Shown: positions 59,918-63,145 of the stretch, one piece after another
Numbering within the stretch: position 1 is the stretch's first letter
Layout: every line of letters begins with the position of its first letter
Assembly (NCBI RefSeq): GCF_003334315.1
Contig: NZ_QOWR01000018.1
Reading direction: 5' to 3' (one strand)
DNA: 64,000 nucleotides
Origin: Escherichia coli
GTDB lineage: Bacteria; Pseudomonadota; Gammaproteobacteria; Enterobacterales; Enterobacteriaceae
Notes under the pieces: generated by a model
Database searches by the model: none
Seen by the model: the letters and a program-made list of their open reading frames with translations, nothing else
Told to the model about the DNA's origin: nothing
Position numbers and translations under genes: made by a program

Positions 59918-62900
59918 ATGGCAGTAAAAATTTCAGGTGTACTGAAAGACGGCACAGGAAAACCGGTACAGAACTGCACAATCCAGCTGAAAGCAAAACG
60001 TAACAGTACCACGGTGGTGGTGAACACGCTGGCATCTGAAAATCCGGATGAAGCCGGGCGTTACAGTATGGACGTTGAGTACGGTCAGTACAGCGTTATT
60101 CTGTTGGTGGAAGGATTCCCGCCGTCACATGCCGGGACCATCACAGTGTATGAAGATTCCCGACCCGGTACGCTGAATGATTTTCTCGGTGCCATGACGG
60201 AGGATGATGCCCGTCCGGAGGCACTGCGCCGTTTTGAGCTGATGGTGGAAGAGGTGGCGCGTAACGCGTCCGTGGTGGCACAGAACACGGCAGCCGCGAA
60301 GAAGTCAGCCAGTGATGCCAGCACATCAGCCCGTGAGGCGGCAACCCATGCGACTGATGCTGCAGGCTCAGCACGCGCAGCCAGCACGTCAGCCGGACAG
60401 GCCGCGTCGTCGGCTCAGTCAGCGACTTCCAGCGCAGGAACGGCATCAACAAAGGCTACTGAAGCATCAAAAAGTGCTGCCGCTGCAGAGTCCTCAAAAA
60501 GCGCGGCAGCTACCAGTGCCAGTGCCGCGAAAACGTCAGAAACGAATGCTGCAGCGTCACAACAATCAGCAGCCACTTCTGCATCCACCGCAACTACGAA
60601 AGCGTCAGAAGCTGCCACCTCAGCCCGGGATGCGGCGGCTTCAAAAGAGGCGGCAAAATCATCAGAAACGAACGCATCCTCGAGCGCCAGTAGCGCAGCT
60701 TCCTCGGCAACAGCGGCAGGAAATTCCGCGAAGGCGGCAAAAACGTCAGAGACGAACGCCAGGTCTTCTGAAACGGCAGCGGGACAGAGCGCCTCGGCTG
60801 CGGCAGGCTCAAAAACAGCGGCTGCGTCGTCTGCCAGTGCAGCGTCAACAAGTGCCGGGCAGGCCTCAGCCAGTGCCACCGCCGCCGGAAAATCGGCAGA
60901 AAGCGCCGCATCGTCTGCTTCAACAGCCACAACGAAGGCTGGCGAAGCCACTGAACAGGCCAGCGCAGCAGCGAGGTCTGCTTCCGCAGCGAAGACATCC
61001 GAAACGAACGCGAAAGCGTCGGAAACCAGCGCAGAATCCTCAAAAACGGCTGCCGCATCGTCAGCCAGTTCGGCGTCGTCATCGGCATCATCTGCGTCTG
61101 CTTCAAAAGATGAGGCGACCAGACAGGCGTCAGCAGCGAAGAGCAGCGCCACGACGGCATCCACGAAGGCAACAGAGGCGGCAGGCAGTGCGACGGCAGC
61201 ATCTCAGAGCAAAACTACTGCTGAATCCGCTGCGACCCGTGCGGAAGCTGCTGCTGATCGTGCTGAAGAGATTGCCGGTGCAGTTGCGATGGAAGACGCA
61301 AGCCTTACAACTAAAGGTGTTGTGAAACTTAGCAGTGCTGTTGATAGCACCAGTGAATCGCTGGCCGCAACGCCAAAAGCAGTTAAAGCAGCCAATGACA
61401 ATGCGAATAGCAGGGTGCCATCTAACCGAAAAGTTAACGGAAAAGCATTGACTGCGGATATAACATTAACGCCGAAAGATATTGGTACTTTAAATTCAGT
61501 AACGATGTCTTTCTCTGGCGGGGCTGGGTGGTTCAAACTGGCTACGGTTACCATGCCACAAGCGAGTTCCATCGTTTACATCGCATTGATTGGTGGCGCT
61601 GGTTACAACGTCGGTTCCCCACATCAGGCAGGCATTTCAGAACTGGTTCTACGAGCAGGCAATGGAAACCCCAAAGGAATTACCGGGGCTTTGTGGAAGC
61701 GTACAGCCGTCGGATTAACGAATTTCGCCTGGATCAACACATCCGGCGATACATATGATATTTACGTTGAGATTGGCAATTATGCGACGAGTGTAAATAT
61801 CCATTGGGATTGTACTGCAAATGCGTCAGTTTCTGTTTATACCTCGCCAACATATTCAGCGAGTAAGCCTTCCAGCGTTACCTATGGTGTTGTTTATACG
61901 ATGTATAGCTCACATCAGAAACCTACACCATCAGATATTGGAGCACTGCCAACAACCGGAGGAACAGTTTCAGGTCCGTTGTCTGTTACAGGTGGATTAA
62001 CTGGTTCATTGAATGGTAATGCAAGTACAGCCACGAAATTGCAGACGGCAAGATCTATCGGTGGAGTTGTTTTCGACGGTTCTGCAAATATTAACCTTCC
62101 AGGTGTAAACACTACGGGTAATCAGAACACCACTGGTAATGCTGCAACTGCTACAAAACTTCAGACTGCAAGAAAAATATCCGGTGTTCCATTTGATGGT
62201 TCTACTGATATCACTTTAACCGCCGCGCATGTGGCTGCTTTTGCCAGAAGGGCAACGGATACATATGCCGATGCGGATGGGGGCGTTCCCTGGAATGCCG
62301 AATCAGGCGCTTATAAGGTCACCCGCTCTGGCGACAGCTATATTCTGGTTAACTTCTATACCGGAGTCGGAAGTTGCCGGACCTTGCAGATGAAGGCGCA
62401 TTACAGAAATGGTGGTCTGTTCTACCGTTCTTCAAGAGACGGTTATGGTTTTGAGGAAGACTGGGCAGAAGTTTATACCTCGAAAAATCTTCCACCAGAA
62501 AGCTACCCAGTCGGCGCACCAATCCCGTGGCCATCAGATACCGTTCCGTCTGGTTATGCCCTGATGCAGGGGCAGACTTTTGACAAATCTGCCTACCCGA
62601 AACTTGCAGCCGCTTATCCGTCAGGCGTGATCCCTGATATGCGTGGCTGGACGATTAAGGGCAAGCCCGCCAGTGGTCGTGCCGTATTGTCTCAGGAACA
62701 GGACGGCATAAAATCGCATACCCACAGCGCCAGCGCATCCAGTACTGATTTGGGGACGAAAACCACATCGTCGTTTGATTACGGCACTAAATCCACGAAT
62801 AACACTGGTGCGCATACCCATAGTGTTAGCGGTACGGCTGCTTCAGCCGGTGCACATACCCATTCGATGACATTTGTTTCAGGTGGTTCCAGTGGTGCTC

Positions 62901-63145
62901 CGGGAAGTGGATCACCTGATTATTCTAAATACAGTGTTAACACTTCTTCTGCAGGCGCTCATACGCACTCTGTATCGGGTACTGCTGCAAGCGCAGGTGC
63001 ACACGCACATACTGTAGGTATTGGTGCGCATACGCACTCGGTTGCGATTGGTTCACATGGACACACCATCACCGTTAACGCTGCTGGTAACGCGGAAAAC
63101 ACCGTCAAAAACATCGCATTTAACTATATTGTGAGGCTTGCATAA
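59918..63145 (+). CDS. Side tail fiber protein (Stf-like) with Ala/Ser-rich repeats and C-terminal His-x-His repeats
   Basis: [27 protein letters not shown]-terminus; long low-complexity middle; C-terminal GAHTHS repeats. Confidence 0.85.
60400..61260 (+). repeat. Degenerate tandem repeats inside the tail fiber gene
   Basis: Recurrent DNA unit ...AAAACGTCAGAAACGAACGC... at about 60531, 60651, 60741 and 60991. Confidence 0.6.

Follow-up and report, generated by a model that had tools for sequence, protein, structure and literature searches.

Could the repeats inside a prophage tail fibre gene act as recombination-prone DNA that, by changing in copy number, alters the length of the fibre and the host range of the phage? 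The question was raised by a preliminary description of the window, meaning here the whole 64,000-nucleotide stretch of Escherichia coli contig NZ_QOWR01000018.1 that was analysed. The gene in question, at 59918–63145, is the ordinary, already annotated stf (side tail fibre) gene of a lambda-like E. coli prophage at the Qin site. It is a single open reading frame of 1075 aa on the + strand (as are all features given here) with an ATG start and a TAA stop; residue numbers are counted from this ATG, and counting from an upstream GTG makes them two residues higher. Its ends coincide with those of the RefSeq CDS WP_072190873.1 in a 100%-identical genome, and the complete E. coli genomes NZ_CP049979 and NZ_CP063341 each carry an annotated gene with 100% identity to it. 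The protein matches PHROG tail-fibre families as well as Pfam PF08400 and PF07484, and it falls into the RefSeq annotation class of "prophage tail fiber N-terminal domain-containing proteins"; no NCBIfam model matched the stf or tfa protein. Earlier work has already described this gene and its family as well as the coiled-coil shaft and the iron-binding tip.

The open reading frames, the PHROG matches and the RefSeq table agree on the order J-lom-stf-tfa, as in the lambda layout. The central tail fibre gene J (55789–59187; 1132 aa, phrog_31) encodes a protein that overall shares 90% identity with lambda J and diverges from it in the last ~150 aa. It is followed by lom (59254–59853; Ail/Lom outer-membrane protein, phrog_108, 8.4e-110), which is flanked by terminator-like hairpins at 59205–59224 and 59880–59901 in a terminator scan. 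On the other side of stf, the tail fibre assembly chaperone gene tfa (63145–63726; 193 aa, phrog_105, 1.4e-98; RefSeq name tfaQ) begins with an ATG that overlaps the stf TAA (TAATG). The prophage integrase lies beside rspB, and the prophage abuts a truncated ydfJ. With regard to invertible-segment and diversity-generating mechanisms, no invertase or reverse transcriptase is annotated around stf in the RefSeq tables.

Residues 1–94 (59918–60199) form the N-terminal collar domain. They are nearly identical to the lambda Stf N-domain structure (PDB 9E7M, E 1.8e-51; 9MGH carries the same name, "Tail fiber protein"), and PF08400 (phage_tail_N) matches aa 1–134 at 1.5e-71. In Ur-lambda, cryo-EM places a collar of twelve copies of the Stf N-terminal domain where gpV meets gpM (PMC12617516), and the collar domain found here would likewise dock the fibre on the tail tip. 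This domain, the position after J and lom and before tfa, and a long proximal stretch predicted to be coiled coil are the features expected of an Stf; the preliminary reading of the gene as a tail fibre was therefore right. On the virion, a lambda-type Stf would assemble into four trimeric fibres that accelerate adsorption.

What, then, is repeated in the middle of the gene? In an ungapped diagonal scan of the protein against itself, the 18 best diagonals all had offsets that were multiples of 7, and the protein autocorrelation peaked at multiples of 7 residues only (z = 8–11; 500 shuffles). A BLASTP self-comparison, which the diagonal scan replaced, had returned the identity hit alone. Direct repeats in the gene are correspondingly spaced by multiples of 21 nt. 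Since self-alignment uncovered significant internal repetition, the observation of repeats stands. The true unit, however, is the heptad (21 nt), which runs through aa 101–457 (60218–61288) as 51 uninterrupted copies of the consensus x-S-A-x-x-A-x, in a single phase over 357 aa without a phase break. Position a is Ala in 35 of the 51 heptads, d is Ala in 47 and g is Ser in 37, while 12 of the a-layers carry a charged residue (E/K). Some of the direct-repeat spacings suggested a larger unit of 231 nt (11 heptads), but this was rejected, as the offset of 77 scored no better than 7, 21, 28, 49 or 56.

Small alanine residues at both a and d of a presumably parallel three-stranded coil are a feature shared with alanine-zipper trimers such as the core of E. 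coli Lpp-56. Compared with zippers of that type, the stf shaft is much longer, has Ser at g and contains charged a-layers. AF2 predicted the monomer to be helical over aa 95–474 (pLDDT 80–94), with the helix folding back on itself at aa 281–284 and one of the five models confident. Such a hairpin is uninformative about a trimer, and a similar fold-back artefact with AF3 was reported by the authors of the Ur-lambda study, who assigned Stf residues 102–393 to a trimeric coiled coil on the basis of cryo-EM and AF3 (PMC12617516). By analogy with that shaft, aa 101–457 would be a parallel trimeric coiled coil of the alanine-zipper type, about 53 nm long if canonical.

The relatives of the gene indicate that this fold is maintained. 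Variable sites are scarce at the core positions (8 of 52 at a, 6 of 53 at d and 4 of 52 at g) compared with the other positions (18–25 of 52–53), and because the substitutions avoid a, d and g, the shaft appears to be under purifying selection. This bears on the possibility that stf is a relic, decaying in a defective prophage, that makes no functional fibre and whose repeats have no current role. The prophage does occupy the Qin site, the Qin and Rac prophages of K-12 are defective, and downstream of this locus the reference genome also carries a second, fragmentary tfa. Against decay, on the other hand, stands the selection on the fold; the 1075-aa reading frame is intact, and so are J, lom and tfa and a complete complement of genes for head, tail, lysis, replication and integrase. 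We therefore consider a relic unlikely, and the fibre is probably expressed.

Are the repeats of the protein also repeats of the DNA? The middle of the gene had been described as several degenerate tandem copies of an Ala/Ser/Thr-rich unit with the recurring motif AAAACGTCAGAAACGAACGC. The gene contains no exact copy of this motif, but four copies with 1–3 mismatches are present (at 60530, 60656, 60740 and 60992), where none is expected (100 shuffles). All four lie in the shaft and encode K(T/S)SETNA; they are 126, 84 and 252 nt apart and therefore not adjacent. Thus, the repetition beyond chance was correctly seen, whereas its tandem arrangement and the proposed unit were not. Tandem Repeats Finder (minimum score 30) found no array in the coil; its only hits were two of 23 nt with 1.9 copies. 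Exact direct repeats in the gene reach 12 nt at most, compared with a mean of 11.8 in codon-shuffled and 12.7 ± 1.9 in synonymous-permuted sequences, and the DNA of peptide repeats that are identical in the protein is only about 63–67% identical. Repeated 10-mers in the coil numbered 23, compared with 12.1 ± 5.4 in the synonymous-permuted null (upper tail 0.04); given this slight excess, the KTSETNA motif may be weakly conserved at the DNA level. Codon scrambling to avoid DNA repeats was also considered, and was rejected because the repeat statistics match the synonymous-permuted null or exceed it slightly.

These results leave little room for recombination at the repeats. Slippage or unequal recombination within the gene would vary the number of heptads or HxH motifs and so tune fibre length and host range. 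Efficient RecA-dependent exchange needs ~20–30 bp, and the 12-nt repeat, which is no longer than the protein sequence predicts, is far below this. Head-to-tail DNA repeats of high identity, as expected of a hypermutable tandem repeat, are not present in the gene.

Does the copy number nevertheless vary? We counted heptads in relatives taken from IMG/VR loci; the matches listed by a homologue search with the N-terminus were short or truncated (130–266 aa), many of them marked "partial", and were unfit for this purpose. The coil had the same length as here in 44 of the 51 comparable relatives, and these 44 together with the present gene comprise 42 distinct coil sequences that are 90.7–98.6% identical. 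Furthermore, 60 hits were sampled across 4,904 matching complete-genome E. coli records, down to ~87% identity and including K-12 stfR, and a heptad-sized indel was seen in none of them. The coil does occur in discrete in-frame lengths among relatives, which speaks for slippage: 42 nt are missing in relative L030, 315 nt in lambda and in L040, L048, L049, L055 and L072, 336 nt in L073, and 660 nt (220 aa) in L074. In four of the five variant types the difference is an exact multiple of 21 nt, and those lacking 2, 15 and 16 heptads stay in register, so the length of the shaft can differ between lineages. The 15 additional heptads, however, are at best 57–64% identical in DNA to the rest of the coil, which led us to reject a recent internal duplication as their origin.

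The heptad-number variants are rare and old, and close relatives show none of the copy-number polymorphism expected of a hypermutable locus. Moreover, the variation that matters for host range maps to the head domain of the tip and to swapped modules, as detailed below. The proposal that the repeats are recombination-prone and change host range through their copy number is thus largely refuted, and we regard slippage as highly improbable. With high confidence, we instead interpret the gene as the stf of a Qin-site lambda-like prophage, accompanied by tfa and encoding a mosaic, homotrimeric, four-part fibre, in which the repeats are structural periodicities. The heptads of the coil and the HxH motifs of the tip are thus periodicities of the structure that purifying selection maintains in the protein, and both are encoded by diverged DNA rather than by hypermutable tracts. 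Heptads and HxH layers are, in other words, periodic protein architecture that should not be taken for unstable DNA repeats.

Among the nearest named systems, Ur-lambda Stf (orf-401 plus orf-314 in lambda PaPa) with its Tfa has the same locus order, the same heptad pattern in its shaft and, likewise, a gp37-like tip with a chaperone. Residues 1–303 of lambda Stf are collinear with the present gene at 86% nucleotide identity, and residues 300–384 are collinear again at an offset of 315 nt (15 × 21), such that the lambda shaft has 36 heptads and the present one has 51, with the extra 105 aa following aa 303. Ur-lambda Stf is 774 aa long, compared with 1075 aa here, and its middle modules are different and shorter. 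The coil of StfR from the K-12 Rac prophage, on the other hand, is collinear without indels at 92.4% nucleotide identity over 1255 nt, whereas the parts beyond about aa 495 vary between alleles, including those of the RefSeq relatives. Could the length of the shaft itself be selected? Because the 51-heptad shaft is kept in most of the sampled complete-genome stf alleles while the distal parts are swapped, it is conceivable that it serves as a "ruler" fitting the reach of J or the thickness of the LPS or capsule, with conserved in-register motifs as preferred splice points, but we consider this rather doubtful.

Beyond the shaft, the fibre would continue into exchangeable, beta-rich middle modules. 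The segment directly after the shaft (61289–61402) matches residues 105–156 of the phage Mu tail fibre S (5YVQ), and within or near it homology to many relatives ends, at gene nt 1310–1313 or 1482–1487. The following middle module (61403–62497; aa 496–860; phrog_21552, phrog_6722) holds another segment like Mu S (8JU3, residues 322–415), and most relatives have unrelated sequence in its place. The diagonal scan also located in this module a pair of 28-aa repeats lying 40 aa apart, at aa 700–727 (62015–62098) and aa 740–767 (62135–62218), with a score of 102; the pair had been missed in the preliminary description.

Since the modules distal to the coil are swapped, the total protein length among relatives ranges from 765 to 1260 aa. 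Homology breakpoints recur at aa ~279, 302–306, 436–437, 494–495, 740, 863–866, ~970 and ~1011–1026, positions that were taken from the ends of megablast alignments and are approximate. One source of diversity and host range would be recombination between stf alleles that exchanges the distal modules, with the coil and the junction motifs providing homology; the other would be substitutions in the head domain.

Might the conserved coil, together with KTSETNA, TKGVVKLSS...ATPKAVK and other short conserved motifs, then act mainly as "landing pads" of homology between the stf alleles of co-resident prophages and phage-plasmids? Genomes contain a median of 2 matching places and up to 13–15; in total, ~11,800 places in 5,426 complete E. 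coli genomes match the coil. From gene nt ~535 onward, the coil is shared with a fibre of 1432 aa encoded by a 110-kb plasmid and with ~108-kb phages. Breakpoints recur at three of the sites named above (aa 302–306, 436–437 and 494–495), and ~25 relatives of the S74-chaperone class lose homology within the third motif copy (60740–60759), at nt 839 of the gene. However, alignment ends locate breakpoints only approximately, the fact that one class of breakpoints falls in a 20-nt motif may reflect chance or the shared ancestry of one lineage, and recombination is deduced here rather than directly observed as an event. We give this reading about an even chance; it complements the structural explanation and does not replace it. 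The modularity itself has been put to use: 126 functional lambda-Stf chimeras carry foreign receptor-binding domains on the N-terminal part of lambda Stf, and the STF-V10 chimera used lambda aa 1–393 (bioRxiv 10.1101/2025.02.28.640725). The conserved N-terminal part and coil are thus a scaffold already used to equip lambda particles with new receptor-binding domains.

The fibre ends in a receptor-binding tip of the T4 gp37 type (62498–63142; aa 861–1075), composed of a collar (PF07484, 1.7e-11), a needle and a conserved C-terminus. It matches the T4 gp37 crystal structure 2XGF (residues 785–1026) at E 4.9e-88, and the collar, needle and head layout is deduced from about 75% identity over 215 aa. 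GAHTHS, whose repetition had been noted, occurs four times in the needle, and with SHTHS, GAHAHT and SHGHT this makes seven HxH motifs between aa 934 and 1049 (62717–63064). All seven pair with HxH motifs of T4 gp37 in the alignment, and the C-terminal strand is conserved as well. According to Bartual 2010, as cited in PMC11705849, the T4 motifs coordinate seven iron ions. By homology, the motifs here, one per chain per layer, would form a stack of octahedral sites for Fe(II) ions along the needle, which would have six strands, consistent with the preliminary assignment of these motifs to a metal-binding receptor-recognition tip. A ~215-aa receptor-binding family of T4 and lambda with an adjoining chaperone gene has been described (PMC9659904); the homology over this length, the seven motifs in register and the chaperone gene directly downstream (gp38 in T4, Tfa here) place the present tip in the gp37 type. 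The likeness to T4 stops at the tip: the remainder of the fibre is unrelated, and so are the virion types, that of a siphovirus for the prophage and that of a myovirus for T4.

The number of HxH motifs is seven in nearly all relatives with this tip type, again in contrast to expectations from slippage. The lambda tip, which has eight owing to one additional SFDYGTK and one additional GAHxH unit, fits slippage better; its head domain is unrelated in sequence to the one here. In the present tip, the part offered to the receptor, which in T4 and lambda is OmpC and/or LPS, would be a variable head domain on the needle. This domain lies between the third and fourth HxH motifs (62864–62959; aa 983–1014). 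Column variability among 34 distinct tips peaks there, and DNA homology to relatives is lost at about aa 970 and regained at about aa 1011–1026. These results indicate that the head domain and the exchange of distal modules determine host range in the stf family.

The head domain aligns to residues 931–961 of T4 gp37, within which host-range mutations map (PMC5221442), and it is likely to be the receptor-contact surface. Mapping the 2XGF alignment onto the specificity residues named in that study, we found that T939 is replaced by G, V941 by S, G943 by A, Y949 by G and A955 by K, while Y953 is kept. As the head domain is divergent, the receptor may differ from OmpC/LPS.

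The stf gene (window 59918–63145, + strand) is a single open reading frame (ORF) in the ORF listing and encodes a side tail fibre protein of 1075 aa, numbered here from its ATG. The mechanical ORF list opens the gene at a GTG at 59912, two codons 5′ of the ATG at 59918. The ATG is the real start, because the RefSeq CDS begins there in a genome that is 100% identical over the whole gene and because the solved lambda Stf N-domain also opens with MAVKISG. The gene is already known, and RefSeq has an entry with the exact protein sequence. It belongs to the lambda Stf family, carries a tip of the T4 gp37 type, and showed each defining feature that was open to testing. 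The N-terminus matches Pfam PF08400 (1.5e-71), and aa 1–94 match the lambda Stf collar domain of the Ur-lambda virion (9E7M, E 1.8e-51). The coil, or shaft, is followed by a conserved junction segment common to phage Mu fibre protein S (5YVQ), an exchangeable middle module, and a second Mu S-like segment (8JU3).

What is the unit of the internal repetition? The preliminary description proposed degenerate tandem copies of an Ala/Ser/Thr-rich unit marked by a recurring DNA motif. The repetition is real and far above chance: residue identity at lag k peaked only at k = 7, 14, 21 … 56 (z = 8–11 against 500 shuffles), and in the self-alignment that had been suggested as a check, the 18 best diagonals all lay at offsets divisible by 7. 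It does not form a tandem DNA array, as Tandem Repeats Finder detected none in the region of the motif and coil. The motif, a 20-mer, has no exact copies; four copies with 1–3 mismatches, all encoding K(T/S)SETNA, are spaced 126, 84, and 252 nt apart, compared with none in shuffles, and the spacings of the DNA repeats are multiples of 21 nt. The true repeat unit is the heptad, much shorter and more regular than had been supposed. Residues 101–457 form 51 consecutive heptads of the pattern x-S-A-x-x-A-x in a single phase, with no skips or stutters; Ala occupies position a in 35 heptads (Glu or Lys in 12) and position d in 47, and Ser occupies position g in 37. A pair of 28-aa repeats (aa 700–727 and 740–767) had been overlooked. 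Long ORFs (100–337 aa) are also open over the coil, at 60312–61325 (+), 60415–61164 (−), 60594–61202 (−), and 60085–60452 (−), because the GCN-rich 21-nt periodicity leaves other frames open. These are a by-product without sign of being genes; a counterpart, the antisense "orf206b" within orf-401, is annotated in the lambda record.

In Ur-lambda, cryo-EM and AlphaFold3 modeling assigned Stf residues 102–393 to a proximal trimeric coiled coil, with a flexible linker to the collar (PMC12617516). Our AlphaFold2 monomer model of aa 90–520 predicted a continuous helix for aa 95–474 (pLDDT mostly 80–94) with one fold-back, as expected when a trimer is modeled as a monomer. The lambda gene is collinear with the first 909 nt of this stf (86% identity), lacks the next 315 nt (15 × 21), and then resumes collinearity within its coil, which has 36 heptads of the same pattern in all. 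The canonical coiled-coil rise is about 0.148 nm per residue, from which we infer a shaft of ~53 nm here compared with ~37 nm in lambda.

Are these repeats prone to recombination, as had been suggested? Exact direct repeats in stf reach at most 12 nt, close to the values for codon-shuffled coils (mean 11.8) and for synonymous-codon permutations that kept the protein (12.7 ± 1.9). Two 19-aa peptide copies ending in (T/A)H agree at 18 positions and share only 38 of 57 nt, and the 28-aa repeats have 53 of 84 nt in common. The repeats are thus degenerate at the DNA level, and stf shows neither feature that defines a hypermutable repeat locus. Recent duplication as the source of the 15 heptads that lambda lacks was ruled out, as they have only 57–64% DNA identity with the rest of the coil.

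We evaluated heptad number in relatives drawn from 80 IMG/VR loci with an N-terminus at least 96% identical, 69 of which carry complete genes (514 to 1260 aa, mostly 765–1260 aa). Coil length was taken as the distance from an anchor at the coil start to one just beyond its end. Among 51 relatives including lambda, 44 had the same distance as this gene, 367 aa (42 distinct coil sequences, 90.7–98.6% identical to it). Five, including lambda, measured 262 aa (15 heptads fewer), one 353 aa (two fewer), and one 147 aa (220 aa shorter and out of register by 3); in addition, 16 heptads were missing from one incomplete locus. Substitutions among the relatives avoid positions a, d, and g, as would be expected for a conserved coiled-coil core. 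Furthermore, of 5,426 complete E. coli genomes searched with the coil, 3,581 matched at least 80% of its length, and none of 60 rows sampled evenly down the ranked hits, K-12 stfR among them (92.4% identity over 1255 nt), contained a heptad-sized indel. The sole length differences were of 1–3 nt, in 4 of the 60. With one dominant coil length among the relatives and no such indel in the sampled rows, heptad number is therefore quantised rather than fast-varying, and differs occasionally, between old lineages. The preliminary description was right, and its functional speculation, that variation in repeat number could alter fibre length and host range, is unsupported.

The variation lies instead in the distal modules and in the head domain of the tip. 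The collar and coil are common to the relatives and the distal parts are unrelated; in a large class of those with other C-termini, the protein ends with an S74-type chaperone sequence. Homology starts and stops at recurrent points (~aa 279, 302–306, 436–437, 494–495, 740, 863–866, ~970, and ~1011–1026). In one breakpoint class, represented by ~25 loci, homology breaks within the third copy of the KTSETNA motif (gene nt 839; window 60756), compatible with conserved motifs serving as junctions for exchange between stf alleles. Such exchange is plausible because genomes hold a median of 2 stf-like places, and up to 13–15. Engineering work likewise points to the distal parts: 126 chimeras carried foreign receptor-binding domains on the lambda Stf N-terminal part to retarget particles, STF-V10 being built on aa 1–393 (bioRxiv 10.1101/2025.02.28.640725).

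Past about gene nt 535 (window ~60450–61420), the coil is 89–94% identical to part of a tail fibre gene (1432 aa) carried by E. coli plasmids of ~110 kb such as pR9-658-1 (NZ_CP107165.1), next to cor and a gene for a tail tip fibre, and it is likewise present in the ~108-kb phages CMS-2020a and Cyrano. This likeness indicates exchange of fibre modules between lambdoid prophages and phage-plasmids. The matches listed in the N-terminal protein search were only short or incomplete entries of 130–266 aa, many labelled "partial" and some grouping hundreds to thousands of sequences (stf aa ~130–266, window ~60300–60715). Draft assemblies evidently break within the coil, likely because co-resident prophages share it and not because of its internal repeats.

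The repeated GAHTHS motif noted at the C-terminus is present in four copies, which with SHTHS, GAHAHT, and SHGHT make seven His-x-His (HxH) motifs. Residues 861–1075 align with the receptor-binding tip of T4 gp37, as solved by crystallography (2XGF, E 4.9e-88), and each of the seven T4 HxH motifs pairs with one in stf, consistent with the proposed metal-binding, receptor-recognition type of tip. Seven iron ions are bound along the T4 needle by these motifs (Bartual et al. 2010, cited in PMC11705849); the ~215-aa T4/lambda tip family and its adjacent chaperone gene were previously described (PMC9659904). The lambda tip has one SFDYGTK and one GAHxH unit more, as if the needle had been lengthened by one layer in a coordinated way. 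Among gp37-type tips the needle is nearly invariant (seven HxH in nearly all), and variability is highest in the head domain, which separates HxH 3 from HxH 4 and aligns with gp37 931–961. By our mapping of the 2XGF alignment to the gp37 residues tied to OmpC or LPS recognition (PMC5221442), T939, V941, G943, Y949, and A955 are all replaced in stf, and only Y953 is kept. By analogy with homologues, three chains would form a parallel Ala-core coiled-coil rod anchored at the tail tip by the collar domains, Tfa would chaperone trimerisation of the tip, and each HxH layer would bind one Fe(II). The head domain may then touch an outer-membrane receptor, speeding adsorption before the central tail fibre J engages its own.

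J (55789–59187) and lom (59254–59853) precede stf; downstream, the stop codon of stf and the ATG of tfa, the assembly chaperone gene (63145–63726), overlap in TAATG. J and lambda J share ~98% identity as far as ~aa 980; over its receptor-binding C-terminal ~150 aa (aa ~980–1132, window 58720–59187), identity falls to roughly 40%, and J probably does not use LamB in lambda's manner. Two strong terminator-like hairpins with T-runs (59205–59224 and 59880–59901) flank lom, a "moron"-like layout known from lambda. The second lies only ~15 nt 5′ of the stf start; therefore, stf expression must rely on read-through by the antiterminated late transcript.

The right two-thirds of the window (~20400–64000 and beyond) is a roughly 45-kb lambdoid prophage (3223408–3268384 in the annotated reference NZ_CP049979.1), which looks complete there between an integrase adjoining rspB and a truncated ydfJ, the Qin position of E. 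coli. It carries dicB, ydfD, hokD, rem, cspI, ymcF, ynfN, and gnsB with full head, tail, and lysis modules, and appears to be an intact relative of the defective Qin prophage of K-12. The last tfa codon (63724–63726) gives VAPIR, compared with VAPIG in the otherwise 100%-matching IBS28 genome; therefore, the window strain differs from this reference. About 350 nt past the window end, 3′ of the intact tfa, a 49-aa ORF (24352–24501 of reference locus L082) carries a Tfa C-terminal fragment ending in IEWPAVPVG, probably a relic of an older tail-fibre cassette exchange.
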